DNA from: Candidatus Multivorans sp.
GTDB lineage: Bacteria; Acidobacteriota; Thermoanaerobaculia; Multivoradales; Multivoraceae
DNA length: 64,000 nucleotides
NCBI GenBank assembly: GCA_965247095.1
Contig: OZ251997.1
Location: 2,144,001-2,208,000 of the forward strand
Reading direction: 5' to 3'
Part shown: piece after piece, positions 9,001 through 30,495 of the stretch
Position numbering within the stretch: the stretch's first letter is position 1
Layout of the letters: every line of letters starts with the position of its first letter
Translations under genes and position numbers: made by a program
The notes under the pieces: generated by a model
Told to the model about the DNA's origin: nothing
Database searches by the model: none
What the model saw: only the letters and a program-made list of their open reading frames with translations

Positions 9001-12000
9001 CCTTCGCCAGCGGCGATCAGAGCAAGACGTTCACGGTGACCGCGAGCGAGGACGCGGACCTCGATGACGACACGGTGGAGCTGGGCTTCGGGACGCTGCC
9101 GACGGCCGTAACCGCGGGGAACCAGGCGACGGCGACGGTGGCGCTGGAGGACGACGACGGCGCGGCGCTGCAGGTGACCTTCGGGGCGTCGACCTACACG
9201 GCGATCGAGAACGGCGCCGCCGTCACGGTGACGGTGAGCCTCGACGCGACATCGGACCGGGCGCTGACGATCCCGATCACGACCGATCCGACGAGCGGCG
9301 ACTTTTCTCTGTCGTCCACCAGCTTGACCTTCGCCAGCGGCGATCAGAGCAAGACGTTCACGGTGACCGCGAGCGAGGACGCGGACCTCGATGACGACAC
9401 GGTGGAGCTGGGCTTCGGGACGCTGCCGACGGCCGTAACCGCGGGGAACCAGGCGGCGGCGACGGTGGCGCTGGAGGACGACGACGGCGCGGCGCTGCAG
9501 GTGAGTTTCGGAGCGTCGACCTACACGGCGATCGAGAACGGCGCCGCCGTCACGGTGACGGTGAGCCTCGACGCGACATCGGACCGGGCGCTGACGATCC
9601 CGATCACGACCGATCCGACGAGCGGCGACTTTTCTCTGTCGGCCACCAGTTTGACCTTCGCCAGCGGCGATCAGAGCAAGGCGTTCACGGTGACCGCGAG
9701 CGAGGATGCGGACCTCGACGACGAGACGGTAACGCTGAGCTTCGGCACCTTGCCGACGGGCGTCACCGCCGGCACGCCGTCGTCGGCGGCGGTGACGCTG
9801 GAGGACGACGACGACGACGCGGAGGCGTTGACGGTGACCTTCGGGAAGTCGACCTACACGGCGATCGAGAACGGCGCCGCCGCCTCGGTGACGGTGGGTC
9901 TGGACAAGATGTCGGACCGGGCGCTGACGATCCCGATCAGCCTCTCGCCGTCGACCGGCGACTTCAGCGCATCGTCCACCAGTCTGAGCTTCGCGGCAGG
10001 CGACCAGACCAAGACGATCACGGTGACCGCGAGCGAGGACGCGGACCTCGACGACGAGACGGTGACGCTGAGCTTCGGCACCTTGCCGACGGGCGTCACC
10101 GCCGGCACGCCGTCGTCCGCGGCGGTGACGCTGGAGGACGACGACGACGACGCGGAGGCGTTGACGGTGACCTTCGGGAAGTCGACCTACACGGCGATCG
10201 AGAACGGCGCCGCCGCCTCGGTGACGGTGGGTCTGGACAAGATGTCGGACCGGGCGCTGACGATCCCGATCAGCCTCTCGCCGTCGACCGGCGACTTCAG
10301 CGCATCGTCCACCAGTCTGAGCTTCGCGGCAGGCGACCAGACCAAGACGATCACGGTGACCGCGAGCGAGGACGCGGACCTCGACGACGAGACGGTGACG
10401 CTGAGCTTCGGCACCTTGCCGACGGGCGTCACCGCCGGCACGCCGTCATCGGCGGCGGTGACGCTGGAGGACGACGACGACGACGCGGAGGCGTTGACGG
10501 TGACCTTCGGCGCGTCGACCTACACGGCGATCGAGAACGGCGCCGCAGCGGCGGTGACGGTCGGTCTGGACAAGATGTCGGACCGGGCGCTGACCATCCC
10601 GATCACCCTCTCGCCGTCGACCGGGGACTTCAGCGCATCGTCCACCAGCCTGAGCTTCGCGGCAGGCGACCGGACCAAGACGATCACGGTGACCGCGAGC
10701 GAGGATGCGGACCTCGCCGACGAGACGGTGACGCTGAGCTTCGGCACCCTGCCGACGGGCGTCACCGCCGGCACGCCGTCGTCGGCGGCGGTGACGCTGG
10801 AGGACGACGACGACGCCGCGGAGGCGTTGACGGTGACCTTCGGGAAGTCGACCTACACGGCGATCGAGAACGGCGCCGCCGCCTCGGTGACGGTGGGTCT
10901 GGACAAGATGGCGGACCGGGCGCTGACCATCCCGATCACCCTCTCGCCGTCGACCGGGGACTTCAGCGCATCGTCCACCAGCCTGAGCTTCGCGGCAGGC
11001 GACCAGACCAAGACGATCACGGTGACCGCGAGCGAGGACGCGGACCTCGACGACGAGACGGTGACGCTGAGCTTCGGCACCTTGCCGACGGGCGTCACCG
11101 CCGGCACGCCGTCGTCGGCGGCGGTGACGCTGGAGGACGACGACGACGCCGCGGAGGCGTTGACGGTGACCTTCGGGAAGTCGACCTACACGGCGATCGA
11201 GAACGGCACTGCGGCAGCGGTGACGGTGGGTCTGGACAAGATGGCGGACCGGGCGCTGACCATCCCGATCACCCTCTCGCCGTCGACCGGGGACTTCAGC
11301 GCATCGTCCACCAGCCTGAGCTTCGCGGCAGGCGACCAGACCAAGACGATCACGGTGACCGCGAGCGAGGACACGGACCTCGACGACGAGACGGTGACGC
11401 TGAGCTTCGGCACCTTGCCGACGGGCGTCACCGCCGGCACGCCGTCGTCGGCGGCGGTGACGCTCGAGGACGACGACGACGCCGCGGAGGCGTTGACGGT
11501 GACCTTCGGGGCGTCGACCTACACGGCGATCGAGAACGGCGCCGCCGTCACGGTGACGGTGAGTCTGGACGCGACGTCGGACCGGGCGCTGACGATCCCG
11601 ATCAGCCTTTCGCCGTCGACCGGCGACTTCAGCGCATCGTCCACCAGTCTGAGCTTCGCGGCAGGCGACCAGACCAAGACGATCACGGTGACCGCGAGCG
11701 AGGACGCGGACCTCGACGACGAGACGGTGACGCTGAGCTTCGGCACCTTGCCGACGGGCGTCACCGCCGGCACGCCGTCGTCGGCGGCGGTGACGCTCGA
11801 GGACGACGACGACGCCGCGGAGGCGTTGACGGTGACCTTCGGCGCGTCGACCTACACGGCGATCGAGAACGGCGCCGCCGTCACGGTGACGGTGGGTCTG
11901 GACAAGATGGCGGACCGGGCGCTGACCATCCCGATCACCCTTTCGCCGTCGACCGGCGACTTCAGCGCATCGTCCACCAGTCTGAGCTTCGCGGCAGGCG

Positions 12001-15000
12001 ACCAGACCAAGACGATCACGGTGACCGCGAGCGAGGACGCGGACCTCGACGACGAGACGGTGACGCTGAGCTTCGGCACCTTGCCGACGGGCGTCACCGC
12101 CGGCACGCCGTCGTCCGCGGCGGTGACGCTGGAGGACGACGACGACGACGCGGAGGCGTTGACGGTGACCTTCGCGGCGTCGACCTACACGGCGATCGAG
12201 AACGGCGCCGCCGCCTCGGTGACGGTGGGTCTGGACAAGATGGCGGACCGGGCGCTGACCATCCCGATCACCCTCTCGCCGTCGACCGGGGACTTCAGCG
12301 CATCGTCCACCAGCCTGAGCTTCGCGGCAGGCGACCAGACCAAGACGATCACGGTGACCGCGAGCGAGGACACGGACCTCGACGACGAGACGGTGACGCT
12401 GAGCTTCGGCACCTTGCCGACGGGCGTCACCGCCGGCACGCCGTCGTCGGCGGCGGTGACGCTCGAGGACGACGACGACGCCGCGGAGGCGTTGACGGTG
12501 ACCTTCGGGGCGTCGACCTACACGGCGATCGAGAACGGCGCCGCCGTCACGGTGACGGTGAGTCTGGACGCGACGTCGGACCGGGCGCTGACGATCCCGA
12601 TCAGCCTTTCGCCGTCGACCGGCGACTTCAGCGCATCGTCCACCAGCCTGAGCTTCGCGGCAGGCGACCAGACCAAGACGATCACGGTGACCGCGAGCGA
12701 GGACGCGGACCTCGATGACGAGACGGTAACGCTGAGCTTCGGCACCTTGCCGACGGGCGTCACCGCCGGCACGCCGTCGTCGGCGGCGGTGACGCTGGAG
12801 GACGACGACGACGACGCGGAGGCGTTGACGGTGACCTTCGCGGCGTCGACCTACACGGCGATCGAGAACGGCGCCGCCGCCTCGGTGACGGTGGGTCTGG
12901 ACAAGATGGCGGACCGGGCGCTGACGATCCCGATCACCCTCTCGCCGTCGACCGGGGACTTCAGCGCATCGTCCACCAGCCTGAGCTTCGCGGCAGGCGA
13001 CCAGACCAAGACGATCACGGTGACCGCGAGCGAGGACGCGGACCTCGACGACGAGACGGTGACGCTGAGCTTCGGCACCTTGCCGACGGGCGTCACCGCC
13101 GGCACGCCGTCGTCGGCGGCGGTGACGCTGGAGGACGACGACGACGACGCGGAGGCGTTGACGGTGACCTTCGCGGCGTCGACCTACACGGCGATCGAGA
13201 ACGGCGCCGCCGCCTCGGTGACGGTGGGTCTGGACAAGATGGCGGACCGGGCGCTGACGATCCCGATCAGCCTTTCGCCGTCGACCGGCGACTTCAGCGC
13301 ATCGTCCACCAGTCTGAGCTTCGCGGCAGGCGACCAGACCAAGACGATCACGGTGACCGCGAGCGAGGACGCGGACCTCGATGACGAGACGGTAACGCTG
13401 AGCTTCGGCACCTTGCCGACGGGCGTCACCGCCGGCACGCCGTCGTCGGCGGCGGTGACGCTCGAGGACGACGACGACGCCGCGGAGGCGTTGACGGTGA
13501 CCTTCGGGAAGTCGACCTACACGGCGATCGAGAACGGCACTGCGGCAGCGGTGACGGTGGGTCTGGACAAGATGGCGGACCGGGCGCTGACGATCCCGAT
13601 CAGCCTTTCGCCGTCGACCGGCGACTTCAGCGCATCGTCCACCAGTCTGAGCTTCGCGGCAGGCGACCAGACCAAGACGATCACGGTGACCGCGAGCGAG
13701 GACGCGGACCTCGACGACGAGACGGTGACGCTGAGCTTCGGCACCTTGCCGACGGGCGTCACCGCCGGCACGCCGTCGTCGGCGGCGGTGACGCTGGAGG
13801 ACGACGACGACGCCGCGGAGGCGTTGACGGTGACCTTCGGGAAGTCGACCTACACGGCGATCGAGAACGGCACTGCGGCAGCGGTGACGGTGGGTCTGGA
13901 CAAGATGGCGGACCGGGCGCTGACCATCCCGATCACCCTCTCGCCGTCGACCGGCGACTTCAGCGCATCGTCCACCAGTCTGAGCTTCGCGGCAGGCGAC
14001 CAGACCAAGACGATCACGGTGACCGCGAGCGAGGACGCGGACCTCGACGACGAGACGGTGACGCTGAGCTTCGGCACCTTGCCGACGGGCGTCACCGCCG
14101 GCACGCCGTCGTCCGCGGCGGTGACGCTGGAGGACGACGACGACGACGCGGAGGCGTTGACGGTGACCTTCGGGAAGTCGACCTACACGGCGATCGAGAA
14201 CGGCACTGCGGCAGCGGTGACGGTGAGTCTGGACGCGACGTCGGACCGGGCGCTGACGATCCCGATCAGCCTTTCGCCGTCGACCGGCGACTTCAGCGCA
14301 TCGTCCACCAGTCTGAGCTTCGCGGCAGGCGACCAGACCAAGACGATCACGGTGACCGCGAGCGAGGACGCGGACCTCGACGACGAGACGGTGACGCTGA
14401 GCTTCGGCACCTTGCCGACGGGCGTCACCGCCGGCACGCCGTCGTCCGCGGCGGTGACGCTGGAGGACGACGACGACGCCGCGGAGGCGTTGACGGTGAC
14501 CTTCGGGAAGTCGACCTACACGGCGATCGAGAACGGCACTGCGGCAGCGGTGACGGTGGGTCTGGACAAGATGGCGGACCGGGCGCTGACGATCCCGATC
14601 AGCCTTTCGCCGTCGACCGGCGACTTCAGCGCATCGTCCACCAGTCTGAGCTTCGCGGCAGGCGACCAGACCAAGACGATCACGGTGACCGCGAGCGAGG
14701 ACGCGGACCTCGACGACGAGACGGTGACGCTGAGCTTCGGCACCCTGCCGACGGGCGTCACCGCCGGCACGCCGTCGTCGGCGGCGGTGACGCTGGAGGA
14801 CGACGACGACGACGCGGAGGCGTTGACGGTGACCTTCGGGAAGTCGACCTACACGGCGATCGAGAACGGCGCCGCCGCCTCGGTGACGGTGGGTCTGGAC
14901 AAGATGTCGGACCGGGCGCTGACGATCCCGATCAGCCTCTCGCCGTCGACCGGCGACTTCAGCGCATCGTCCACCAGTCTGAGCTTCGCGGCAGGCGACC

Positions 15001-18000
15001 AGACCAAGACGATCACGGTGACCGCGAGCGAGGACGCGGACCTCGACGACGAGACGGTGACGCTGAGCTTCGGCACCTTGCCGACGGGCGTCACCGCCGG
15101 CACGCCGTCATCGGCGGCGGTGACGCTGGAGGACGACGACGACGACGCGGAGGCGTTGACGGTGACCTTCGGCGCGTCGACCTACACGGCGATCGAGAAC
15201 GGCGCCGCAGCGGCGGTGACGGTGGGTCTGGACAAGATGTCGGACCGGGCGCTGACCATCCCGATCACCCTCTCGCCGTCGACCGGGGACTTCAGCGCAT
15301 CGTCCACCAGCCTGAGCTTCGCGGCAGGCGACCGGACCAAGACGATCACGGTGACCGCGAGCGAGGATGCGGACCTCGCCGACGAGACGGTGACGCTGAG
15401 CTTCGGCACCCTGCCGACGGGCGTCACCGCCGGCACGCCGTCGTCGGCGGCGGTGACGCTGGAGGACGACGACGACGCCGCGGAGGCGTTGACGGTGACC
15501 TTCGGGAAGTCGACCTACACGGCGATCGAGAACGGCGCCGCCGCCTCGGTGACGGTGGGTCTGGACAAGATGGCGGACCGGGCGCTGACCATCCCGATCA
15601 CCCTCTCGCCGTCGACCGGGGACTTCAGCGCATCGTCCACCAGCCTGAGCTTCGCGGCAGGCGACCAGACCAAGACGATCACGGTGACCGCGAGCGAGGA
15701 CGCGGACCTCGACGACGAGACGGTGACGCTGAGCTTCGGCACCTTGCCGACGGGCGTCACCGCCGGCACGCCGTCGTCGGCGGCGGTGACGCTGGAGGAC
15801 GACGACGACGACGCGGAGGCGTTGACGGTGACCTTCGGGAAGTCGACCTACACGGCGATCGAGAACGGCACTGCGGCAGCGGTGACGGTGGGTCTGGACA
15901 AGATGGCGGACCGGGCGCTGACCATCCCGATCACCCTCTCGCCGTCGACCGGGGACTTCAGCGCATCGTCCACCAGCCTGAGCTTCGCGGCAGGCGACCA
16001 GACCAAGACGATCACGGTGACCGCGAGCGAGGACACGGACCTCGACGACGAGACGGTGACGCTGAGCTTCGGCACCTTGCCGACGGGCGTCACCGCCGGC
16101 ACGCCGTCGTCGGCGGCGGTGACGCTCGAGGACGACGACGACGCCGCGGAGGCGTTGACGGTGACCTTCGGGGCGTCGACCTACACGGCGATCGAGAACG
16201 GCGCCGCCGTCACGGTGACGGTGAGTCTGGACGCGACGTCGGACCGGGCGCTGACGATCCCGATCAGCCTTTCGCCGTCGACCGGCGACTTCAGCGCATC
16301 GTCCACCAGTCTGAGCTTCGCGGCAGGCGACCAGACCAAGACGATCACGGTGACCGCGAGCGAGGACGCGGACCTCGACGACGAGACGGTGACGCTGAGC
16401 TTCGGCACCTTGCCGACGGGCGTCACCGCCGGCACGCCGTCGTCGGCGGCGGTGACGCTCGAGGACGACGACGACGCCGCGGAGGCGTTGACGGTGACCT
16501 TCGGCGCGTCGACCTACACGGCGATCGAGAACGGCGCCGCCGTCACGGTGACGGTGGGTCTGGACAAGATGGCGGACCGGGCGCTGACCATCCCGATCAC
16601 CCTTTCGCCGTCGACCGGCGACTTCAGCGCATCGTCCACCAGTCTGAGCTTCGCGGCAGGCGACCAGACCAAGACGATCACGGTGACCGCGAGCGAGGAC
16701 GCGGACCTCGACGACGAGACGGTGACGCTGAGCTTCGGCACCTTGCCGACGGGCGTCACCGCCGGCACGCCGTCGTCCGCGGCGGTGACGCTGGAGGACG
16801 ACGACGACGACGCGGAGGCGTTGACGGTGACCTTCGCGGCGTCGACCTACACGGCGATCGAGAACGGCGCCGCCGCCTCGGTGACGGTGGGTCTGGACAA
16901 GATGGCGGACCGGGCGCTGACCATCCCGATCACCCTCTCGCCGTCGACCGGGGACTTCAGCGCATCGTCCACCAGCCTGAGCTTCGCGGCAGGCGACCAG
17001 ACCAAGACGATCACGGTGACCGCGAGCGAGGACACGGACCTCGACGACGAGACGGTGACGCTGAGCTTCGGCACCTTGCCGACGGGCGTCACCGCCGGCA
17101 CGCCGTCGTCGGCGGCGGTGACGCTCGAGGACGACGACGACGCCGCGGAGGCGTTGACGGTGACCTTCGGGGCGTCGACCTACACGGCGATCGAGAACGG
17201 CGCCGCCGTCACGGTGACGGTGAGTCTGGACGCGACGTCGGACCGGGCGCTGACGATCCCGATCAGCCTTTCGCCGTCGACCGGCGACTTCAGCGCATCG
17301 TCCACCAGCCTGAGCTTCGCGGCAGGCGACCAGACCAAGACGATCACGGTGACCGCGAGCGAGGACGCGGACCTCGATGACGAGACGGTAACGCTGAGCT
17401 TCGGCACCTTGCCGACGGGCGTCACCGCCGGCACGCCGTCGTCCGCGGCGGTGACGCTGGAGGACGACGACGACGCCGCGGAGGCGTTGACGGTGACCTT
17501 CGGCGCGTCGACCTACACGGCGATCGAGAACGGCGCCGCCGTCACGGTGACGGTGGGTCTGGACAAGATGGCGGACCGGGCGCTGACGATCCCGATCACC
17601 CTCTCGCCGTCGACCGGGGACTTCAGCGCATCGTCCACCAGCCTGAGCTTCGCGGCAGGCGACCAGACCAAGACGATCACGGTGACCGCGAGCGAGGACG
17701 CGGACCTCGACGACGAGACGGTGACGCTGAGCTTCGGCACCTTGCCGACGGGCGTCACCGCCGGCACGCCGTCGTCGGCGGCGGTGACGCTGGAGGACGA
17801 CGACGACGACGCGGAGGCGTTGACGGTGACCTTCGCGGCGTCGACCTACACGGCGATCGAGAACGGCGCCGCCGCCTCGGTGACGGTGGGTCTGGACAAG
17901 ATGGCGGACCGGGCGCTGACGATCCCGATCAGCCTTTCGCCGTCGACCGGCGACTTCAGCGCATCGTCCACCAGTCTGAGCTTCGCGGCAGGCGACCAGA

Positions 18001-21000
18001 CCAAGACGATCACGGTGACCGCGAGCGAGGACGCGGACCTCGATGACGAGACGGTAACGCTGAGCTTCGGCACCTTGCCGACGGGCGTCACCGCCGGCAC
18101 GCCGTCGTCGGCGGCGGTGACGCTGGAGGACGACGACGACGCGGCGACATCGTTAACGGCGACCTTCGGTGCGTCGACCTACACGGCGATCGAGGGCGAG
18201 AGGGGCGTCTCGGTGACGGTCAGTGTCGACCAAGCCGCCGACCGGGCTCTGACGATCCCGATCACCACCGATCCGTCGAGCGGGGACTTCACGGGCCCGG
18301 CCGAAGTGGTCTTTGCGGTGGGTGATGACTCGAAGACGATCACAGTCACCGCGACCGACGACCCGGACCTCGACGACGAGACGGTGAGGCTGAGCTTCGG
18401 TGCGCTGCCGACCAATGTCAGTGCGGGGAGCCGGGCGGCGACGACGGTGACGCTCGTGGACGACGACCGAGCGGAGCTCACGGTGACGCTCGGCGCCGGG
18501 GGGACCGAGGGTGGCACGACCTATACGGCGACCGAGGGCGGCACGGGCGCCCAGGTGCCGGTGAGTCTGGGCCAGAGCGCCGATCGCTCCATAGTGATCC
18601 CGATCACCACCGACCCGGCGAGCGGCGACTTCACGCTATCGGCGACCAGCCTGAGCTTCGCGGTGGGCGATGAGACGAAGACGATCACAGTCACCGCGAC
18701 CGACGACCCGGACCTCGAGGATGAGACCGTAACGCTAGGCCTTGGTGCGCTGCCGGTCGATGTCAGTGCGGGGAGCCAGGCGACGACGACGGTGACGCTG
18801 GTGGACGACGACCGGACGCCGCTCACGGTGACGTTCGCCGCAGAGACCTACACCGCGAAGGAAAACGGGACGGAAGCCGAGGTGAGGGTGGCGCTGGACC
18901 AGGCCGCGGACCGGGAGGTGAGGATCCCGATCACCACCGACCCGGCGAGCGGGGACTTCACGGGCCCGGCCGAAGTGGTCTTTGCGGTGGGTGATGACTC
19001 GAAGACGATCACAGTCACCGCGACCGACGACCCGGACCTCGACGACGAGACGGTGAGGCTGAGCTTCGGCACGCTGCCGGTCGATGTCAGCGAGGGGGGC
19101 CAAGCGACGACGACGGTGACGCTGGTGGACGACGACCGGACGCCGCTCACGGTGACGTTCGCCGCAGAGACCTACACCGCGAAGGAAAACGGGACCGAGG
19201 CCGAGGTGAGGGTCGTGCTGGACCAGGCCGCGGACCGGGAGGTGAGGATCTCGATCACCGCCGATCCGGCGACGGGGGACTTCGCCCTGTCAGCGACGCA
19301 GGTGGTCTTTGCGGTGGGCGATGAGTCGAAGACGGTCACGGTGACGGCGAGCGAGGACCCGGACCTCGATGACGAGAGGGTGACGCTGGGCTTCGGCACC
19401 CTGCCGGTCGATGTCAGTGCGGGGAGCCCTTCAGCGACGACGGTGACGCTTGTGGATGACGACGAGGTGCCACTCGTGGTGAGCTTCGGGGCAGCGTCCT
19501 ACGAGGCGACGGAGGGCGGGCCCGCCGCCACGGTGACGGTGGCGCTCGACCAGGCCGCGGATCGGGAGGTGACCATCCCACTCACCACCGATCCGGAGAC
19601 GGGGGACTTCGCCCTGTCGGCGACGCAGGTGGTCTTCGCGGTGGACGATGCGACGAAGACGATCACGGTGACGGCGAGCGAGGACCCGGACCGCGATGAC
19701 GAGACGGTCGAGCTGGGCTTCGGCACCCTGCCGGTCGATGTCAGTGCGGGGAGCCCTTCAGCGACGACGGTGACGCTTGTGGACAAGACGCTACTGGAAC
19801 TCGAGGTGAGCTTTGTACAGGCGGACTACCAGATGAGGGAAGGAGTCGAAGCGCTCATCGAGGTGCAGGTGTCGCCGGCAGCGGACCGGCGAGTGGAAGT
19901 GCCGCTGGAAGTGACGCCAGAAGGAGGGGCGAGTGAAGCCGACTATCGCATGCCAGTGTCTGTAGTGATCGAGGAAGGCGAGAGCCAAGGCACGGTCACC
20001 ATGGAGGTTCACGCGGATGAAGTGAACGATCCTGGGGAGTCGGTTGTGGTGGGCTTGGCAGGGATGCCGGAGGCGGTGAGTGCGGGCGATCTCTCCGCGA
20101 CCCAGGTGCACTTCAGACAGTGGCGGACGACGGAACAGTTCTCGCAAACGCTTGAAGCAATAGCAGCGGTGATCGCACGCACAATGGGTGACAGCGCGCA
20201 AACGGCGATAGAGGGCCGGTTTGAGCGGCATCGGCAGAGGAGTCGATCGGGGCAATCGGTTGACACGATGCCGACACTGCAGCCGGGGAGCGTTGCACTC
20301 TCCGACCAAACGCACATTAGCCCCTCTCCAGGCTCCGTCATAGCGCCGAGTCGGAGAGTCTACGGGCAGCAGAATCGACTACATGGTTCTGGAGCCGGAG
20401 CCGGGCCGCTGGGACCGGGGTCGCGTGGCTTCTCAGGGGTGAGGGATCACCTGTTCAGCCTTTCGGGGGTCTCCTTCGAGATGTCCTCGGGGGCCTTCGA
20501 GACGTCCCTGGGAGAGAGTGAGAAGGAGACGAACTGGGTTCCGGTGTTGTGGGGACAAGGGAATCTGCACCACTTCAGCGGGGACTTGAAGCGGATGGGA
20601 ATGAACTATCGAGGAGGTCTCGAGGCCGCTCATGTGGGGCTGGATCTCTTTGCCGACGACCAGGTGCTCGCCGGTCTGTCGTTCATGCGCAGCCGGGGGC
20701 ACCTGGATTACACCGATGATGGGATAGATGCGGTGCTACTGGAGAGTCGCATGAACACGGTTCACCCCTATCTGCACTGGCAGCCGAATGAACGGTTGAG
20801 CGTATGGGGTATTGGCGGCCTGGGCTGGGGTCAAGTGGATGCCACGGAGCCGGGCCGGGCTCACGACTTCGATGCCGACTTTCTGATGTTCGCGGGGGGC
20901 GTGAGGGCGGTGCTAGGCGGGCGGGCTAACAACGAATGGGGTCTGCGAGCGGATGCCTTCACGGCCCAACTCCAGACCGACGCGTCGAAGGACATCGCCA

Positions 21001-22226
21001 AGGTAAGCGGTGAGGCCCACCGGGGCCGGTTGATGCTGGAATGGGTGCACGACAGGGAGTTGTCGGTGGGGAGATCACTGAGCCTGACGGCGGAGGCCGG
21101 CGGGCGTTTCGACGGCGGCGACGCGGATCGTGGCAGCGGCGTGGAAACCGGCTTGCGTCTGGGCTTCCTGGATGCGAACAGCGGCCTGGATGTGGCGCTG
21201 CACGGCCGGGTGCTGGTAGCGCACGAAAGCGACTACCGGGACTGGGGAGCGGGCGTGCAGGCGAGTTGGGACCCGGGGGCGAAGCGGCGCGGTCTCACAT
21301 TGTCGGTGAATTCCTCGCTGGGCCAGGACGGCGGCGGCGGAACGACGCTGTGGGACAACGCAGATGCAATCACACGCACAGCCGGGCTGGGAGCCTTGGG
21401 GACCGGCTCCCAGTACCGAATGGAGAGCGAGGTGGCGTACGCCGGCATAAGGGCGCCGGGCTTACGCGGTCTGCTGACGCCGTATAGCCGGCTGCGATGG
21501 GCAGGACAGGCACGAGAGCTGGCCTTGGGCACGACTTGGAGCCTGCCGACTCGCTCGCACGCCGCGATGCCGGCCACGTTTGAGCTGGAATGCCTGAGGC
21601 GCGAGAGCACAACGGGACCGGCCGATCTGGCGGTCTTGCTGCGCGTGTCGATCCCCATGGGCGCCTCGCAGAGGGTCATCCCCCGTCCGGGCCGCGATTT
21701 CACCGTTGCGCTCCAGCTCACACCGCCGAGGGACGCGGCACCTGCTCTGGAATCGACTCCGCCAGGGTTGGCACGCTCGCCAACAGAGACAGCACGTTCC
21801 GGAGGAGAAGGGCGCGGAGTGACTATTCAGGCGGCGCTACTGCGAAGTGCGAGAGCGATGCCGCAACCCAGCTCCGCGGCACCCCCGACGGAAATCGCCG
21901 AGTTGCAAGCCCTGACGACACCGCCGCCCGAGCCTCGTCGTCAACCACAACCCGCGGAACCGGTCCCCGAGCTTTCGCCAAGCGGAGACATCCTCGTTCA
22001 AGTCGGCGCTTTTCGGAGCGGGGAGAAGGCCGCCCGGCTAACACACGAGCTGCGGCAAGAGGGCTATGCAGCGAACACGATCGAAGGCAGCGACTATGAC
22101 CGCGTCGTCGTTGGGCCATTCGCCAGCCGAACCGAAGCTGCCAACGCACGATCGCAGCTAGATCAGCAAGGCTACGAGGGATACCTTCGAGCCGACCTGG
22201 CGCACCGGCTGCCGCCTACGCGATAG
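1..22226 (+). CDS. Giant repetitive surface adhesin / autotransporter-like protein (cadherin-like, VCBS-like, FN3 x13, Calx-beta-like x~41, beta-barrel, C-terminal SPOR); 5'-partial
   Basis: 7393-aa ORF 45..22226. The frame is open from base 3 (YENAADADTNNTYLV, a cadherin-like motif), so the true start lies upstream. Motifs: PNYEDPHDEDTDNEYEV, GAWTYTLDN, FN3 W...Y...YTFEIQA, acidic DDD linkers, WGQG...PY beta-strands, VQVGAF...RVVVGPF. Confidence 0.9.
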   Translation, partial: YENAADADTNNTYLVTVEADDGTDTGTLAVTVTVTDVASAAPVFVGYGTTADFTYEENGTAAVQAFTVTTQDSSDSVYVHISTGDDDDDFVGVWSNGTFTLAFDRQPNYEDPHDEDTDNEYEVNLQAVAVGSTILVSSLVIDVTVTDVEEDPLFGGDTGGFVTEDDSTTTVSGTLTVNDDDDTTIIAQSNTAGTYGSFSITSTGAWTYTLDNTDPSTNALDVGEDVTESFTVYASDGTSQDVVITISGYDDAPAVTGPTAPLYAENGTDPVAIYSAIDPEGHSFQWAFLGDDTTRFSYSRIANTPDIELNFVSTDRPDYETPADTNSDNAYELALLPYASGTRTGYPYYVTVSVTDVNEAPTFDEGSSTTRSIDENSPPGTPVGNAVTATDPDTNTAYSSLAYSLSGTDASSFDIHATTGQISVANGATLDWESKTSYSVTVEVSDRRHAGGAPDSTIDDTIAVTINVNDASINLAVNTTSVAEDDGATTVTVTATLDGGAIGSATTVSVSVAGSGTNTAVDFAAVTTFNINIPANVSSATGTFTLTPTDDTVDETDETVTVTGIAGTLTVASATLSLTDDETTPTVTLALDDNSVSENGGQATVTASLSGASSAVTTVTVSAAAVPPAVAADLTLTGTTLTIAAGDTSSTGLVTITGVDNNVAASNKTVNVSASVSGGNGVAAPAGTTLTLEDDDAAGITLSVSQASVAEDADPTDVTVTATVTDGNTLAAAQSVTVAVGTAGDAASEGEDYETVADFTITIEAGSTSETGTFSLDPTDDELDEGTGETLSVGGSTTGGATVTGTTVTITDNDAAPSGITLSVSPTIVIEGAGPTTVTVTATVEGGTTYATAQGVTVEVGAAGDAATEGTDYAAVDDFTVTIPAGSTSDTGTFSLDATDDELDEGNGETLSVSGTLSGVTVTPAAVTITDEAPSPPAAPTNLTATAGNAQVTLAWEDPGDSSITGYRYLQSTDGGMTFGTGTTITGSGANTTSYVVDQVTSGTAYTFKVQAQNPGGWSASSNEATATPQQPPPGAPTNFIATAGNAQVTLAWANPNDSNITAYRYRQSTDGGTTFGTFTTITGSGANTTSHVVDQLTNGAAYTFEIQAQNTGGWSDLSTQATATPIAPPVVPTNLAATAGNGIVILGWADPRDSSITAYRYRQSTDGGATFGAFTTISGSGANTTSHVVDQLTSGTAYTFEIQAKNAGGWSGSSNRATATPIAPPGAPTNFIATASNAQVTLAWANPNDSNITAYRYRQSTDGGATFGTFTTIAGSGASTTSHVVDQLTNGTAYTFEIQAQNAGGWSTSSIQATATPMVPAGTPTGLTATAGNGIVTLGWANPSDPSILRYRYRQSTDGGATFGAFVTIAGSGANTTSHIVTGLTNGSTYTFEIQAQRSFGWSPSSNRASAALLTAPPVAPTVLTATAGNGIVTLEWENPNDTNITAYRYRQSTDGGATFGAFVTIAGSGASTTSHVVGQLTNGTAYTFEIQAQNTVGWSASSNQDTATPIEPLGAPTSLTATAGNAQVTLGWANPNDTSITAYRYRQSTNGGVSFGVFATIAGSGANTTSHVVIQLTNGTAYTFEIQAQRSAVWSASSNQAAATPIAPPDSPLNLTATAGNGTAILGWAEPDDASITAYRYRQSTDGGTTFGAFTTIAGSSASTTSHIVSQLTNGTAYTFEIQAQRSSDWSASSNQATATPFAPPAAPTSFTATTGNGQVTLDWAEPYDSSITAYRYRQSTDGGTTFGAFTTITGSGANTTSHVVAQLTNGTAYTFEIQAQNASGWSASSNRAAATPIVPTATPTGLTATAGNAQVTLGWADPNDSSITAYRYRQSTNGGVSFGAFVTIAGSGAATTSHVVSQLTNGIAYTFEIQAQRSSGWSASSNQATATPFAPPDAPTSFTATAGDGRVTLGWAEPYDRSSITAYRYRQSTDGGTTFGAFRTITGSGASTTSHTVSQLTNGTEYTFEVQAQNASGWSVSSSQATVAPQIASPAAPAGLNATAGNAQVTLAWVDPSDSGITAYRYRQSTDGGTFGDFTTIAGSGASTKSHVVGQLTNGTAYTFEIQAQNAGGWSASSNQTTVTPQIQPPGAATGLTATAGNGQVTLGWVNPSGSGMTASRYRKSTDGGLTFGAFTTITGSGASHVVDQLTNNTSYTFVVQAGNAGGWSTSSNEATATPIQPLVASFAASSYRTTEGGTAAAVTVSLDQTSDRALTIPITTDPTSGDFSLSSTSLTFASGDQSKTFTVTASEDADLDDDTVELGFGTLPTAVTAGNQATATVALEDDDGAALQVSFGASTYTAIENGAAVTVTVSLDATSDRALTIPITTDPATGDFSLSADSLSFAVGDQSKTFTVTASEDADLDDDTVTLSFGTLPTGVTAGSQATVALEDDDGAALQVSFGASTYTAIENGAAVTVTVSLDATSDRALTIPITTDPATGDFSLSADSLSFASGDQSKTFTVTASEDADLDDDTVELGFGTLPTAVTAGSQAAATVALEDDDGAALQVSFGASTYTAIENGAAVTVTVSLDATSDRALTIPITTDPATGDFSLSADSLSFAVGDQSKTFTVTASEDADLDDDTVTLSFGTLPTAVTAGSQATATVALEDDDGAALQVSFGASTYTAIENGAAVTVTVSLDATSDRALTIPITTDPATGDFSLSADSLSFAVGDQSKTFTVTASEDADLDDDTVTLSFGTLPTGVTAGSQAAATVALEDDDGAALQVSFGASTYTAIEGEAAVTVTVSLDATSDRALTIPITTDPATGDFSLSADSLSFAVGDQSKTFTVTASEDADLDDDTVTLSFGTLPTGVTAGSQAAATVALEDDDGAALQVSFGASTYTAIEGEAAVTVTVSLDATSDRALTIPITTDPTSGDFSLSSTSLTFASGDQSKTFTVTASEDADLDDDTVELGFGTLPTAVTAGNQATVTVALEDDDGAALQVSFGASTYTAIENGAAVTVTVSLDATSDRALTIPITTDPTSGDFSLSSTSLTFASGDQSKTFTVTASEDADLDDDTVELGFGTLPTAVTAGNQATATVALEDDDGAALQVTFGASTYTAIENGAAVTVTVSLDATSDRALTIPITTDPTSGDFSLSSTSLTFASGDQSKTFTVTASEDADLDDDTVELGFGTLPTAVTAGNQAAATVALEDDDGAALQVSFGASTYTAIENGAAVTVTVSLDATSDRALTIPITTDPTSGDFSLSATSLTFASGDQSKAFTVTASEDADLDDETVTLSFGTLPTGVTAGTPSSAAVTLEDDDDDAEALTVTFGKSTYTAIENGAAASVTVGLDKMSDRALTIPISLSPSTGDFSASSTSLSFAAGDQTKTITVTASEDADLDDETVTLSFGTLPTGVTAGTPSSAAVTLEDDDDDAEALTVTFGKSTYTAIENGAAASVTVGLDKMSDRALTIPISLSPSTGDFSASSTSLSFAAGDQTKTITVTASEDADLDDETVTLSFGTLPTGVTAGTPSSAAVTLEDDDDDAEALTVTFGASTYTAIENGAAAAVTVGLDKMSDRALTIPITLSPSTGDFSASSTSLSFAAGDRTKTITVTASEDADLADETVTLSFGTLPTGVTAGTPSSAAVTLEDDDDAAEALTVTFGKSTYTAIENGAAASVTVGLDKMADRALTIPITLSPSTGDFSASSTSLSFAAGDQTKTITVTASEDADLDDETVTLSFGTLPTGVTAGTPSSAAVTLEDDDDAAEALTVTFGKSTYTAIENGTAAAVTVGLDKMADRALTIPITLSPSTGDFSASSTSLSFAAGDQTKTITVTASEDTDLDDETVTLSFGTLPTGVTAGTPSSAAVTLEDDDDAAEALTVTFGASTYTAIENGAAVTVTVSLDATSDRALTIPISLSPSTGDFSASSTSLSFAAGDQTKTITVTASEDADLDDETVTLSFGTLPTGVTAGTPSSAAVTLEDDDDAAEALTVTFGASTYTAIENGAAVTVTVGLDKMADRALTIPITLSPSTGDFSASSTSLSFAAGDQTKTITVTASEDADLDDETVTLSFGTLPTGVTAGTPSSAAVTLEDDDDDAEALTVTFAASTYTAIENGAAASVTVGLDKMADRALTIPITLSPSTGDFSASSTSLSFAAGDQTKTITVTASEDTDLDDETVTLSFGTLPTGVTAGTPSSAAVTLEDDDDAAEALTVTFGASTYTAIENGAAVTVTVSLDATSDRALTIPISLSPSTGDFSASSTSLSFAAGDQTKTITVTASEDADLDDETVTLSFGTLPTGVTAGTPSSAAVTLEDDDDDAEALTVTFAASTYTAIENGAAASVTVGLDKMADRALTIPITLSPSTGDFSASSTSLSFAAGDQTKTITVTASEDADLDDETVTLSFGTLPTGVTAGTPSSAAVTLEDDDDDAEALTVTFAASTYTAIENGAAASVTVGLDKMADRALTIPISLSPSTGDFSASSTSLSFAAGDQTKTITVTASEDADLDDETVTLSFGTLPTGVTAGTPSSAAVTLEDDDDAAEALTVTFGKSTYTAIENGTAAAVTVGLDKMADRALTIPISLSPSTGDFSASSTSLSFAAGDQTKTITVTASEDADLDDETVTLSFGTLPTGVTAGTPSSAAVTLEDDDDAAEALTVTFGKSTYTAIENGTAAAVTVGLDKMADRALTIPITLSPSTGDFSASSTSLSFAAGDQTKTITVTASEDADLDDETVTLSFGTLPTGVTAGTPSSAAVTLEDDDDDAEALTVTFGKSTYTAIENGTAAAVTVSLDATSDRALTIPISLSPSTGDFSASSTSLSFAAGDQTKTITVTASEDADLDDETVTLSFGTLPTGVTAGTPSSAAVTLEDDDDAAEALTVTFGKSTYTAIENGTAAAVTVGLDKMADRALTIPISLSPSTGDFSASSTSLSFAAGDQTKTITVTASEDADLDDETVTLSFGTLPTGVTAGTPSSAAVTLEDDDDDAEALTVTFGKSTYTAIENGAAASVTVGLDKMSDRALTIPISLSPSTGDFSASSTSLSFAAGDQTKTITVTASEDADLDDETVTLSFGTLPTGVTAGTPSSAAVTLEDDDDDAEALTVTFGASTYTAIENGAAAAVTVGLDKMSDRALTIPITLSPSTGDFSASSTSLSFAAGDRTKTITVTASEDADLADETVTLSFGTLPTGVTAGTPSSAAVTLEDDDDAAEALTVTFGKSTYTAIENGAAASVTVGLDKMADRALTIPITLSPSTGDFSASSTSLSFAAGDQTKTITVTASEDADLDDETVTLSFGTLPTGVTAGTPSSAAVTLEDDDDDAEALTVTFGKSTYTAIENGTAAAVTVGLDKMADRALTIPITLSPSTGDFSASSTSLSFAAGDQTKTITVTASEDTDLDDETVTLSFGTLPTGVTAGTPSSAAVTLEDDDDAAEALTVTFGASTYTAIENGAAVTVTVSLDATSDRALTIPISLSPSTGDFSASSTSLSFAAGDQTKTITVTASEDADLDDETVTLSFGTLPTGVTAGTPSSAAVTLEDDDDAAEALTVTFGASTYTAIENGAAVTVTVGLDKMADRALTIPITLSPSTGDFSASSTSLSFAAGDQTKTITVTASEDADLDDETVTLSFGTLPTGVTAGTPSSAAVTLEDDDDDAEALTVTFAASTYTAIENGAAASVTVGLDKMADRALTIPITLSPSTGDFSASSTSLSFAAGDQTKTITVTASEDTDLDDETVTLSFGTLPTGVTAGTPSSAAVTLEDDDDAAEALTVTFGASTYTAIENGAAVTVTVSLDATSDRALTIPISLSPSTGDFSASSTSLSFAAGDQTKTITVTASEDADLDDETVTLSFGTLPTGVTAGTPSSAAVTLEDDDDAAEALTVTFGASTYTAIENGAAVTVTVGLDKMADRALTIPITLSPSTGDFSASSTSLSFAAGDQTKTITVTASEDADLDDETVTLSFGTLPTGVTAGTPSSAAVTLEDDDDDAEALTVTFAASTYTAIENGAAASVTVGLDKMADRALTIPISLSPSTGDFSASSTSLSFAAGDQTKTITVTASEDADLDDETVTLSFGTLPTGVTAGTPSSAAVTLEDDDDAATSLTATFGASTYTAIEGERGVSVTVSVDQAADRALTIPITTDPSSGDFTGPAEVVFAVGDDSKTITVTATDDPDLDDETVRLSFGALPTNVSAGSRAATTVTLVDDDRAELTVTLGAGGTEGGTTYTATEGGTGAQVPVSLGQSADRSIVIPITTDPASGDFTLSATSLSFAVGDETKTITVTATDDPDLEDETVTLGLGALPVDVSAGSQATTTVTLVDDDRTPLTVTFAAETYTAKENGTEAEVRVALDQAADREVRIPITTDPASGDFTGPAEVVFAVGDDSKTITVTATDDPDLDDETVRLSFGTLPVDVSEGGQATTTVTLVDDDRTPLTVTFAAETYTAKENGTEAEVRVVLDQAADREVRISITADPATGDFALSATQVVFAVGDESKTVTVTASEDPDLDDERVTLGFGTLPVDVSAGSPSATTVTLVDDDEVPLVVSFGAASYEATEGGPAATVTVALDQAADREVTIPLTTDPETGDFALSATQVVFAVDDATKTITVTASEDPDRDDETVELGFGTLPVDVSAGSPSATTVTLVDKTLLELEVSFVQADYQMREGVEALIEVQVSPAADRRVEVPLEVTPEGGASEADYRMPVSVVIEEGESQGTVTMEVHADEVNDPGESVVVGLAGMPEAVSAGDLSATQVHFRQWRTTEQFSQTLEAIAAVIARTMGDSAQTAIEGRFERHRQRSRSGQSVDTMPTLQPGSVALSDQTHISPSPGSVIAPSRRVYGQQNRLHGSGAGAGPLGPGSRGFSGVRDHLFSLSGVSFEMSSGAFETSLGESEKETNWVPVLWGQGNLHHFSGDLKRMGMNYRGGLEAAHVGLDLFADDQVLAGLSFMRSRGHLDYTDDGIDAVLLESRMNTVHPYLHWQPNERLSVWGIGGLGWGQVDATEPGRAHDFDADFLMFAGGVRAVLGGRANNEWGLRADAFTAQLQTDASKDIAKVSGEAHRGRLMLEWVHDRELSVGRSLSLTAEAGGRFDGGDADRGSGVETGLRLGFLDANSGLDVALHGRVLVAHESDYRDWGAGVQASWDPGAKRRGLTLSVNSSLGQDGGGGTTLWDNADAITRTAGLGALGTGSQYRMESEVAYAGIRAPGLRGLLTPYSRLRWAGQARELALGTTWSLPTRSHAAMPATFELECLRRESTTGPADLAVLLRVSIPMGASQRVIPRPGRDFTVALQLTPPRDAAPALESTPPGLARSPTETARSGGEGRGVTIQAALLRSARAMPQPSSAAPPTEIAELQALTTPPPEPRRQPQPAEPVPELSPSGDILVQVGAFRSGEKAARLTHELRQEGYAANTIEGSDYDRVVVGPFASRTEAANARSQLDQQGYEGYLRADLAHRLPPTR
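2806..6550 (+). repeat. 13 tandem fibronectin type III coding repeats (~288 bp period)
   Basis: Unit PxxPTxLTATAGNxxVTLxW...ITAYRYRQSTDGG...LTNGTAYTFEIQAQN counted 13 times; copies moderately diverged. Confidence 0.9.
6559..9820 (+). repeat. 10 tandem 327-bp (109-aa) Calx-beta-like coding repeats, type A
   Basis: LEDDDGAALQV recurs at about 6861, 7182, 7509, 7836, 8163, 8490, 8818, 9144 and 9471 (period 327; one unit is 321). Confidence 0.88.
9821..18145 (+). repeat. 25 near-identical tandem 333-bp (111-aa) Calx-beta-like coding repeats, type B
   Basis: Antisense shadow ORFs recur exactly every 333 bp from 9854 to 17846 (25 copies); unit ends in LEDDDD(D/A)AEAL. Confidence 0.92.
18146..20120 (+). 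repeat. About 6 diverged Calx-beta-like repeats
   Basis: Same fold signature (VTFxxxTYxAxE...DRxxxIP...DxDxDDETV...TVTLVDDD) at lower identity. Confidence 0.75.
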
Positions 22227-22241
22227 CGTGCGTCGGGGCCA

Positions 22242-22688
22242 GAGGCGGCGGCGTTCGTCGAGCCGGCCGCCTGTGTGCTGCGCGGAATCGATCGTGCCGG
22301 GTTGCCGAGCGAAGCGCCGGAGGTGGTCGTCGTCGGCGTCGGGTCCATGGGTCTACTCCATCTGCTGGTCCTGCGTGCGGTGTTCCCGGAGACCCGGATC
22401 GTCGTCGCCGAGCCCGACCGCGGCCGCCGGGAGATTGCACGGCAACTCGGCGCCGATGCCGCCGTCGCGCCCAAGCGGATCGTCGAGGCCTCGGGTAACG
22501 CCAGACCGTCGGGCGGCGCCGATGCCGTCTTCGAGACCGCCGGCGGTCAGGCCGCCTTCGACCTGCTACATCGCGGTGTGTTGGATCCGACTCGCCTGGT
22601 GACGCACCGCCTTCCGCTCGACCGAGCCGCGGAGGCCGTTGAACTGTGCCGACGGAGGGCAGCGTTGAAGGTACTGTTGCACCCATGA
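22242..22688 (+). pseudogene. 5'-truncated, internally deleted copy of the Zn-dependent dehydrogenase at 29441..30457
   Basis: EAAAFVEPAACVLRGIDRAGLPSEAPEVVV matches the intact gene from about 29850. The N-terminal catalytic domain is absent and 162 bp are missing internally. Confidence 0.88.
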
Positions 22689-22719
22689 CAGCCGACCCGT
22701 CGACGAGCCGATCCAGGTC

Positions 22720-23592
22720 GTGATCCCGAAGCAATACACGCAGGCGTTCCTGGTCGCACCCCGCAGTGTCGAGTTGAAGCAGCTTCCGATGCCCGAGCCG
22801 GGGCCGGGCGAATCGTTGATGCGGGTGGACGCCGCCACCGTCTGCGCCACGGACATCAAGGTCTACCGCCGCGGCAGCCATCCGACCATGCTGACCCTGC
22901 CGGCGCCCTTCGGCCACGAGGTCACCGGCACGATCGTCCGTTCCGATGCGGACGCCCTGTTCGAGGAGGGCGACGCCGTAGTGGTAGCCAACAGCGCCTT
23001 GTGCGGACACTGTCAGCCCTGTCGGCACAGCCGCGAAAACCTCTGCCGTGAACTTGTGTACCTGAACGGCGCCTTCTCCAACTACTTCCTGATCCCCGCA
23101 GCGGTCGCGACGCGCAGTGTGCACCGGCGGCCGCCGGGCCTCGAGCCCGCGATAGCGTCGCTGGCCGAACCCCTGGCCTGTGCCGTCCACTGCCTCGAGC
23201 CCTGCCTCGCCGCCTGGGGCGGCCCGCCGACTGAGGCCCGGGCACTGGTCATCGGCTGCGGCGCCCTGGGCCTGATGCTGATCGACCTGCTTCACAGCGT
23301 TCGCACCAGGGTCACCGCGCTCGACCCGCATCCGGAGCGGCTCGAACTGGCGGCCGCGTTCGGCGCCGTTGAGACGCACTGCGAGCGCGCCGGCGATGGC
23401 GGCTCCCAGCCGAGCGACTGTTCGATTTCACCGTCGACGCGACCGGCACCCCAACTGGCTGGAACCACGCGGTTGTCTCTCGCGCGCCGGGCGGCGTCGC
23501 CGCCCTCTTCGGAGGTTGCCGGCAAGGCACCGAGCTGACTCTGAACGCCGAACGGATTCACTACCAGGAACAGACCCAGCTCGGCGCCTACC
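22720..23592 (+). pseudogene. Frameshifted, 3'-truncated copy of the Zn-dependent dehydrogenase at 30496..31539
   Basis: MIPKQYTQAFL... is colinear with MIPKHQTQAFL. A 1-nt loss near 23416 (gcgactgttc vs gcgaactgttc) shifts the frame; homology stops at about 23592. Confidence 0.88.
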
Positions 23593-23993
23593 TGGCAATC
23601 AAGATCTGGGAGCCGACGTCTCGGGCCTCCTCGCCGCGGGCGGCATCGCCGGGCTCACGATCGGCTTCGCGGCCCGCGACACGCTGGCCAACCTGTTCGC
23701 CGGCATCTTCATCTTCTCGGACGGCCCCTACAAGATCGGCGACTTCATCACGCTGGACTCGGGCGAACGCGGCATGGTCACCGAGATCGGCATCCGCAGC
23801 ACCCGCCTGCTCACGCGCGGCGACATCGAGATCACGATCCCCAACGCAGTGATGGGCAACGCCAAGATCAACAACGAGAGCGGCGGCCCGCAGGTCAAGT
23901 ACCGGATCCGGGTCCGGGTCGGGGTCGCCTACGGCAGCGATGTGGACCACATCGAAGCGGTCCAGCTCCAGGTGGCCACCGACAACGACAAGG

Positions 23994-30457: not shown

Positions 30458-30495
30458 TTCGCCGTGATTCGCCGTCTGCGCGCCGGAGAAGACCC

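Follow-up and report, generated by a model that had tools for sequence, protein, structure and literature searches.

Why would a giant surface adhesin carry a SPOR domain behind its outer-membrane barrel? This question is raised by a gene in a stretch of 64,000 nucleotides from Candidatus Multivorans sp. (positions 2144001-2208000 of the 4,617,209-base contig OZ251997.1, hereafter the window), whose plus-strand reading frame of 7,506 codons appears to encode a repeat-rich adhesin that ends in an autotransporter-like translocator, a proline-rich linker and SPOR. The answer that we favour, with a confidence just above the halfway mark, is that this linker and SPOR tail would act as a load-bearing tether from the outer-membrane barrel of a giant type Va-like adhesin to the peptidoglycan, a role proposed by analogy with other wall-linked barrels.

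That adhesin and tail are encoded by one gene is apparent from the reading frame, which is open from window base 3 to the stop codon at 22224-22226 and, when read in the whole genome, starts at an ATG 295 bases 5' of the window edge (L005:9706, genome position 2143706). The first-pass annotation, which had been made from the letters of the window, proposed an adhesin of more than 7,400 residues, and this proposal agrees with the single 7,506-residue frame with its signal peptide and repeat passenger; a product of identical length is present in the protein database (P0160). By inspection of the translation, the N-terminus looks like a Sec-type signal peptide, with a hydrophobic core behind a basic n-region and ARA ahead of D (MNGRRR...ILLIAAIACLALPVGARA, followed by DL). 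The passenger matches the Pfam families Cadherin, fn3 and Calx-beta.

Type Va autotransporters normally end on the last barrel strand with an aromatic residue. Chain ends were compared using the 701 C-terminal residues of the window protein (q1-q701, where q is the residue number in this piece; window 20121-22223). 105 of 117 non-extended homologues end in Phe (79) or Trp (26) at the residue aligned to q513, and the remaining 12 either end in Leu (6) or have odd ends (6). The window protein has Met at q513 and continues for another 188 residues. Within the SPOR group, the residue at this position is Leu in 8, Phe in 3 and Met in 1 of 12 proteins, the Met being that of the window protein; as these rows are kin, the counts carry no statistical claim, but the non-aromatic residues would be compatible with a relaxed pressure once the strand is not terminal.

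The in-frame continuation past the barrel end, which had been noted before together with a suggestion to inspect reads across 21650-21670, withstood this inspection. No stop occurs before 22224, the 564 bases of the tail contain no stops or frameshifts, and the codon-position GC pattern remains coding-like across them. A 1,454-nucleotide Logan unitig spans 21473-22400 without gaps in four runs, with one mismatch at the most, so that no stop or indel was seen at the junction; these four runs represent one sample of one study, which is possibly the source of the assembly, and there was no RNA run among the runs that contain the region. Simple scans of 21500-22800, including the junction, found no promoter-like or terminator-like site. 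Since the linker, with its 21 Pro and 16 Ala residues, also lacks a hydrophobic segment able to act as signal peptide, SPOR cannot work as a separate product.

By its sequence, the last domain is a clear member of the SPOR family. PF05036 was matched with E-values of 2.1e-15 and 3.4e-15 (56.6-57.2 bits, with the cut-off at 21; profile positions 2-75 of 76) and scored 62.4 bits in the whole-genome scan. The domain had earlier been placed at 21984-22190 behind a linker of about 108 residues, and these estimates were confirmed apart from minor shifts in the boundaries, as the domain spans 21981-22190 and the linker has 107 residues. NCBIfam matched RlpA, DedD and FtsN partially, at their SPOR ends, and phmmer against solved structures identified the SPOR domain of Escherichia coli FtsN (1uta, E 5e-5) and, more weakly, DedD and CwlC. 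In an AlphaFold2 (AF2) model, the strands and helices of the domain (E626-631, H634-646, E651-654, E660-664 and H670-683) have predicted local distance difference test (pLDDT) values of 76-89, and the final strand of the RNP-like beta-alpha-beta-beta-alpha-beta fold was not modelled (pLDDT below 50). According to the available part of PMC6895207, five FtsN residues are needed for septal localisation, namely Q251, S254, W283, R285 and I313. The 1uta alignment shows that Q251 and R285 are retained in the window protein, and that S254, W283 and I313 are replaced by Ala, Tyr and Leu, respectively; an Ala at the second of these positions is also present in Pseudomonas aeruginosa RlpA, as the same source indicates. 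The putative glycan-binding face is, in terms of these residues, conserved, and across the relatives SPOR is much better conserved than the linker. Homology and conserved residues together suggest that the domain would bind stem-free glycan.

The translocator was examined with an AF2 model of the 701-residue piece. This model was built on an alignment of 41 sequences, that is the query and 40 homologues of less than about 1,000 residues picked from the best 150 of 4,910, and it superseded a single-sequence model that was unusable (mean pLDDT 36.9). It has a mean pLDDT of 70.8 and a predicted template modelling score (pTM) of 0.56. The 4,910 homologues were found at E≤1e-3 among 1.84 billion representatives (3,495 at E≤1e-10), and the C-terminal architecture is therefore beyond chance. 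In the model, the helix that had been predicted from its sequence (QFSQTLEAIAAVIARTMG...EGRF) is present at q4-43 (20130-20249), and together with q140-385 it forms, in the model, a canonical translocator of 12 strands whose pore holds the helix. The superposition on NalP with VIA-align gave a Z-score of 28.9 and a root-mean-square deviation (rmsd) of 2.1 for 260/279 residues (model range 6-385), followed by Hbp (28.5), EstA (27.6), EspP (26.9) and AIDA-I (26.6). The VIA-align ranges begin at model residue 1-6, so that the pore helix is aligned to helix-bearing translocator units. The top ranks of Foldseek were likewise autotransporter beta-domains (EstA, BrkA, EspP, Hbp, NalP and AIDA-I; E 3e-8 to 8e-6), and a Foldseek-independent search over 48,161 chains returned translocators in the same order as VIA-align. 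Strand 12 ends in ...ASW and is followed, in the homologue columns, by a nearly invariant DPG. Altogether, the earlier view of an autotransporter-type adhesin is borne out by the signal peptide, the repeat passenger, the pore helix and the barrel model.

A direct match to the Pfam family Autotransporter (PF03797), which the first-pass annotation had suggested to look for, was not obtained for the window protein at E≤1. This family was matched by 16 of the 41 aligned sequences (best E 9e-13), and P0144 and P0151 matched it over profile positions 2-203 and 1-97, respectively; the window protein is thus linked to it only transitively. A profile search of solved-structure sequences with the 41-sequence alignment found no barrel relative, only weak matches of the Calx-beta type, and fold comparison was therefore needed for assigning the barrel class. 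The window protein is a divergent type Va relative that fails both the direct PF03797 match and the C-terminal aromatic end. From its architecture, the passenger would be exported through or with its own barrel, assisted by the beta-barrel assembly machinery (BAM).

Between barrel and linker, six further strands were modelled at q391-512, which had been missed before. The region 20535-21659 (q139-513) had been described as one amphipathic beta-barrel region; its beta character stands, whereas a single simple barrel does not, as the region consists of a 12-strand unit and a six-strand add-on. The add-on was found in every homologue whose match extends that far, in a family with thousands of homologues, and its columns show a strict alternation of Leu, Val or aromatic residues with Arg, Glu, Gly or Ser. 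Its last strand (...LLRVSIPM) is the strand that bears the C-terminal Phe or Trp in non-extended relatives. A comparison with hhalign detected no internal duplication of the 12-strand part in the add-on (probability 1.9%). No chain of the PDB covered barrel and add-on in one alignment; the match lists were filled by the 12-strand barrel, and this result carries no information on whether the fold of the add-on is new. A count of strand-face composition was not discriminating, and a language-model atlas placed q386-520 near autotransporter- and inverse-autotransporter-like clusters at 0.84-0.91, which are leads only. The add-on may be a small periplasmic beta-domain or may consist of membrane strands, and the six conserved strands may define an undescribed translocator sub-type.

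On which side of the outer membrane would the tail then reside? Strand 12 ends at the periplasmic face in solved translocators. The side of the tail should not be affected by the nature of the add-on, because the chain enters it at the periplasmic end of strand 12 and the add-on contributes an even number of strands. An even strand count had been named before as an indication that SPOR lies in the periplasm, and both possible counts, 12 or 18 with the add-on, are even. The tail should therefore be periplasmic, a location predicted from the type Va topology of the model.

In the mechanism that we favour, the adhesin would be exported by Sec, and its C-terminal translocator, composed of pore helix, 12-strand barrel and six-strand module, would sit in the outer membrane. 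From there, a flexible Pro-rich tether (about 107 residues) would extend into the periplasm with SPOR at its end, and this domain would bind the glycan backbone of peptidoglycan with a preference for strands without stem peptides. Fully extended, the tether would measure about 30 nm, estimated at about 0.3 nm per residue, which exceeds the distance between outer membrane and wall. The tail would thereby couple the barrel to the sacculus non-covalently, and a pull on the filament of about 6,800 residues would be borne by the wall too and not by the outer-membrane bilayer alone. Such an anchoring role is suggested by analogy with OmpA, with the LysM domains of intimin and YeeJ, with the AtaA-TpgA pair, and with the SLH and OmpA tails of trimeric autotransporters. 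The ligands of SPOR are enriched at constricting septa, so that a copy entering the membrane near mid-cell might be retained at the septum and later be found at a new pole. We regard this as a possible by-product rather than the core of the proposal, and septal or polar enrichment would be possible only if insertion occurs near constricting septa.

The tail is not confined to the window protein. A search for other barrel and SPOR proteins, which had been advised earlier, yielded ten other cluster representatives with barrel, linker and SPOR (P0004, P0005, P0006, P0028, P0112, P0154, P0155, P0156, P0157 and P0161), and the junction motif SIP[FLMV] GGS..VIP recurs in frame in ten other cluster representatives from other assemblies. 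P0004 and P0006 are paralogues encoded on the same 3.2-Mb contig, the 7 members of the P0155 cluster are distributed over 7 contigs of 1-7 Mb, P0161 has 7,436 residues, and P0028 is a fragment with two SPOR domains; in P0159 SPOR is broken. The tail-bearing relatives are mostly long (1,454-7,506 residues). A further protein, P0158, which is encoded on a metagenomic contig of 11 kb, combines CarboxypepD_reg with OMP_b-brl_4 (E 5e-129), as in Oar and TonB receptors, and then has linker and SPOR. Its barrel ends in ...KYQF, and the similarity of the tail starts right after this terminal Phe and amounts to 47% identity over 284 columns with the tail of P0028. Since this Oar-like protein carries it, linker and SPOR represent a movable post-barrel cassette on unrelated barrels, and the tail is portable between unrelated outer-membrane barrel families. 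For the same reason, a general barrel-to-wall tether is favoured over a role specific to adhesins.

In a FastTree phylogeny of 138 barrel segments, 10 of 11 SPOR rows fell into one clade of 40 rows, mixed with 21 rows ending in Phe, and P0112 was placed in the other half. For the 40-row clade and five outgroups, an IQ-TREE 'quick' tree required at least three changes of the SPOR label on well-supported branches. A single clade of 19 extended rows was rejected, as it cost 243.8 log-likelihood units (approximately unbiased test, p-AU 0.0011); this 19-row group was defined from the tails, but it was named after the first tree had been seen. Remnant extensions with the motif SIP[FLV] GG[SDE].. that end early were found in P0023, P0025, P0034, P0038, P0040, a locus of a Pseudohongiella metagenome-assembled genome (MAG) and L020. 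The latter (G000:C1:1199200-1202200) is a barrel paralogue in the same genome with a shortened extension that ends in ...SIPLGGSRDVMP before its stop, and it suggests a second tail-bearing copy that was cut by an insertion. By eye, the reading frame after L020 looks like a transposase of the IS21 family. The genome of the window protein encodes at least five further barrels of this family, none of which carries SPOR. The closest barrels in named genomes belong to three Pseudohongiella MAG loci (L006-L008; OX638323.1 and OX638341.1), which are 61-62% identical and match the barrel end but not the tail. These three loci end in Leu directly before the stop or carry a 14-residue extension remnant (GGSRNV...), and they look like lost tails.

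The base composition bears on the origin of translocator and tail. The GC content at third codon positions (GC3) is 0.81-0.90 in neighbouring host genes and 0.86-0.97 in the passenger, and it drops to 0.63-0.82 from about window position 19800 onwards; two close paralogous barrels also have low values (0.76-0.78). This suggests that translocator and tail were imported or exchanged. Proteins in which a SPOR domain might have been fused to a barrel were considered as well. A 947-residue SPOR protein of genome G486 was rejected, since it is no barrel fusion, and so were P0168-P0170, which are double-SPOR periplasmic proteins without a barrel. In the latter, a signal peptide and a long Pro-rich stretch accompany a pair of SPOR domains of the same sub-type (…YHRVVVGPF…QQGYQGYVRADL), and proteins of this type could be a source of the cassette. 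The other large SPOR protein of the genome, a 639-residue open reading frame (ORF; L003, G000:C1:3670738-3673947), showed by eye no barrel fusion.

Several observations weigh against a tether. The alignment behind the AF2 model is shallow, at 41 sequences, and the pTM is 0.56. The model contains a linker strand (q526-533, pLDDT 50-63) drawn beside the last family strand, which, if membrane-spanning, would put SPOR outside, and the add-on may be either a periplasmic domain or a set of membrane strands. The fusion is also rare. When 300 genomes of the same order, 41 of them congeneric, were searched with the 201-residue tail at E≤1e-8, no genome besides that of the window protein yielded the cassette, and one ordinary 259-residue SPOR protein matched; a sample of 401 genomes of the class returned only nine ordinary SPOR proteins (E 1e-9 to 1e-11), two of which were from the unpublished genomes G379 and G432 and enter no other result. 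Furthermore, the tail is dispensable, as the extensions are often shortened, for instance in the paralogue L020, in P0025 and L006, and in P0159. With 0.63-0.64, linker and SPOR have a GC3 well under the values of the host genes, and the tail may have been imported recently and need not be of use in this host. Lastly, deletion of the SLH tail of Veillonella trimeric autotransporters mainly lowered the protein level and affected function modestly, as far as the available text of 10.64898/2026.01.22.700529 reports, and anchoring may therefore not be the main benefit of such tails.

These observations have to be judged together with the other explanations that can be offered for the tail. One that we regard as unlikely, albeit worth serious attention, is that the tail is a localisation device that captures the adhesin at constricting septa and so concentrates it at new poles, with anchoring being secondary. 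This was the emphasis of the first-pass annotation, and targeting to the septum or new pole is suggested there by what SPOR domains do in FtsN, DamX, DedD and RlpA. In the accessible parts of PMC6895207 and 10.1101/2022.07.01.498525, all characterised SPOR domains recognise denuded glycans, which are enriched at the septum, and the conserved residues of the binding face and the long, flexible tether would fit such a role. However, the same cassette is present on the TonB-receptor-like P0158, for which polar placement is of no obvious use. Moreover, integral barrels are generally known to diffuse little, and capture would hinge on the site of BAM insertion. It is less likely still, and in our opinion rather improbable, that the tail aids biogenesis or stability by shielding the protein from periplasmic degradation or by helping BAM to assemble a very long substrate, with wall binding being incidental. 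The closest non-extended relatives are as long (P0011, 5,499 residues; P0015, 7,068 residues with its end cut) and assemble without a tail, and a chaperone-like role would not need a wall-binding fold with an intact face. In favour of such an aid are the length of most tail-bearing relatives and the finding that Veillonella trimeric autotransporters without post-barrel domains were undetectable or much less abundant (available text of 10.64898/2026.01.22.700529).

The cassette could also be a neutral hitch-hiker that was gained by recombination with a paralogue or a foreign gene, is unused in this host and is being lost. The low GC3 of the tail, its absence from the 41 congeneric genomes, its frequent shortening in relatives and in the own paralogue beside an IS21-like transposase, and the Met instead of Phe at the barrel end are in line with this idea, but we hold it to be quite improbable, as SPOR is undamaged, exceeds the Pfam cut-off by a wide margin, has kept its key residues and is much better conserved than the linker in a tail of 564 bases without stops or frameshifts. 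The linker strand q526-533 beside the last family strand raises the question of whether an odd number of membrane strands could place the tail outside the cell, where SPOR would bind foreign glycans or the walls of neighbours, and surface binding has been reported for SPOR proteins of the RlpA type from some pathogens (PMC11392263 and PMC10399853, as far as available). We consider this very improbable. The strand has a low pLDDT and its sequence is not conserved in the linkers of relatives, and non-extended relatives end at q513, so that the family fold is complete without it. It is hardly credible that an adhesin gene and a SPOR gene were fused at the barrel end by an error of assembly or sequencing. 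Long arrays of near-identical repeats are hard to assemble and the unitig runs come from one sample that may be the assembly source, but the unitig bridges 21473-22400 without a gap, a signal peptide is missing from the tail, and the same in-frame junction motif occurs in the ten representatives from other assemblies. The load-bearing tether thus remains the explanation that we prefer.

The features on which this reading is based are listed below together with the repeat arrays of the passenger. The copy number of the Calx-beta array at 6568-19733 is uncertain in any assembly of such near-identical units. The loop between pore helix and strand 1 is rich in Gly, Ser and Pro and varies in length among homologues, reaching by eye about 170-190 residues in P0008 and P0004; its disordered stretch of low pLDDT in the AF2 model is q57-134.

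Features of the giant adhesin gene in window coordinates; q, residue number in the analysed 701-residue C-terminal piece
Feature	Position	Strand	Basis
Passenger (part inside the window)	3..20129	+	ORF; upstream start; Pfam Cadherin, fn3 and Calx-beta
Tandem array of 288-nucleotide units (96-residue FN3), about 13 copies, 82% matches	2816..6547	+	Tandem Repeats Finder; Pfam fn3
Tandem array of 333-nucleotide units (111-residue Calx-beta), about 40 copies, 92-95% matches	6568..19733	+	Tandem Repeats Finder; Pfam Calx-beta
40-residue alpha-helix (q4-43), modelled in the barrel pore as in NalP, Hbp and EspP	20130..20249	+	AF2 pLDDT 90-97; VIA-align
96-residue low-complexity loop (q44-139), predicted disordered, from pore helix to strand 1	20250..20537	+	pLDDT 31-58; loop and homologue sequences
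Canonical 12-strand autotransporter beta-barrel (q140-385), as modelled	20538..21275	+	AF2 pLDDT mostly >90; VIA-align; Foldseek; PF03797 matches of homologues
Family-wide add-on of six amphipathic beta-strands (q391-513)	21291..21659	+	AF2 pLDDT 58-88; column conservation; terminal residues
ATG (Met) at the position of the family's C-terminal Phe/Trp; frame runs on without stop	21657..21659	+	Terminal-residue alignment
107-residue Pro/Ala-rich linker (q514-620), predicted disordered, starting with the cassette motif G[GA]S.R/xVIP	21660..21980	+	Composition; pLDDT 27-63; homologous linkers
SPOR domain (q621-690)	21981..22190	+	Pfam PF05036; FtsN 1uta; AF2
Stop codon of the giant gene	22224..22226	+	ORF reading

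The giant gene is flanked upstream by an intact mscS-like gene (L005:8259-9425) and downstream by an mscS fragment that is 95% identical (23369-24067). A truncated paralogue of an alcohol dehydrogenase gene is located at 22720-23538 (71% to 30415-31539), and a transposase-like ORF of 423 residues without a Pfam match at 24210-25481 on the minus strand. The duplicated mscS and dehydrogenase pieces and the transposase-like ORF are signs of rearrangement or insertion.

How does this protein relate to known systems? With the type Va proteins NalP, Hbp, EspP, EstA, AIDA-I and BrkA it shares the signal peptide, the N-terminal passenger, the pore helix and the 12 strands (Z 24-29, rmsd 2.0-2.8, 231-277 residues). 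It differs from them in the 96-residue loop, the six extra strands, the linker and SPOR after the barrel and the lack of a PF03797 match, and also in a passenger of Ig-like, FN3 and Calx-beta repeats whose length is well beyond the usual. In the classical proteins, strand 1 follows the helix without a loop of this kind. With OmpA the window protein has only the layout in common, that is a barrel with an even number of strands, a Pro-rich hinge, a C-terminal periplasmic wall-binding domain and an internal beta-signal strand. OmpA has 8 strands and no passenger, and its OmpA_C domain binds the stem region of the peptides, whereas SPOR binds stem-free glycan; PF00691 (OmpA_C) was not matched by the window protein at E≤1. 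Its SPOR domain belongs to the same family as those of FtsN, DedD, DamX, RlpA and CwlC and has a conserved binding face, but these are inner-membrane or lipoprotein factors of division and morphogenesis, and the carrier here would be the barrel of an outer-membrane adhesin. In the available text of PMC6895207, all known SPOR proteins are described as being involved in division or morphogenesis.

Barrels with wall-binding domains are known from other adhesins. Trimeric autotransporters with post-barrel domains have been described in the accessible text of 10.64898/2026.01.22.700529 for Veillonella (VtaG, SLH) and Streptobacillus (OmpA). Like the window protein, they have a periplasmic extension with a peptidoglycan-binding domain right after the barrel, which was proposed there as an anti-shear anchor; unlike it, they are of type Vc (3 x 4 strands), have a coiled-coil start and SLH or OmpA domains, and occur almost exclusively outside Proteobacteria. 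The window protein is modelled with a monomeric 12-strand barrel and a Pro-rich linker that is predicted to be disordered and has no helix. The main text of the cited article mentions 'SPOR' 0 times and treats type Va only for extended signal peptides, although its supplement on domain types could hold exceptions. Inverse autotransporters (type Ve; intimin and YeeJ; PMC5595812, as far as available) are likewise adhesins in which one chain provides both a 12-strand barrel and a periplasmic domain that binds peptidoglycan, but this domain is LysM and precedes the barrel, and their topology is inverted. AtaA of Acinetobacter resembles the window protein in that a very long fibre has its barrel tied to peptidoglycan against extraction, although the tie is not a fused tail but the separate periplasmic protein TpgA, with a BamE-like and an OmpA domain (available parts of PMC12523085 and PMC13082670).

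The first-pass annotation had not recognised the architecture as one already described. The novelty holds for SPOR on a monomeric type Va protein, as no description of such a tail was found in the open-access literature searched, judged by title or the start of the abstract. It does not hold for post-barrel wall binding as such, in view of the SLH and OmpA domains of trimeric autotransporters and the LysM domains of inverse autotransporters. What is new here is SPOR as the domain, monomeric type Va as the class and the behaviour of the tail as a cassette.

The repertoire of SPOR would thus be extended to outer-membrane tethering, with the same tail occurring on two unrelated barrel families, and monomeric autotransporters can apparently carry post-barrel wall-binding domains, a feature so far reported for trimeric ones, mostly outside Proteobacteria. 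The protein also represents a natural test of whether BAM tolerates an internal, non-aromatic beta-signal, with Met or Leu in place of the terminal Phe, and it may provide an experimental handle on how giant adhesins resist being pulled from the membrane; it could also help to find out whether outer-membrane proteins can be positioned by septal glycan. A bolder view, to which we attach only a minor likelihood, is that a portable SPOR module, joined by recombination to the C-terminal strand of unrelated barrels such as a monomeric autotransporter and a TonB-receptor-like Oar protein, fixes new outer-membrane barrels at division sites and new poles via stem-free glycan, and that the barrel represents an undescribed 12+6-strand type of translocator. 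If this were true, the module would be a previously unrecognised way of patterning integral outer-membrane proteins and would give an adhesin of 7,500 residues a polar, wall-anchored base, and the 12+6-strand sub-type of type V translocators would be present in thousands of proteins.

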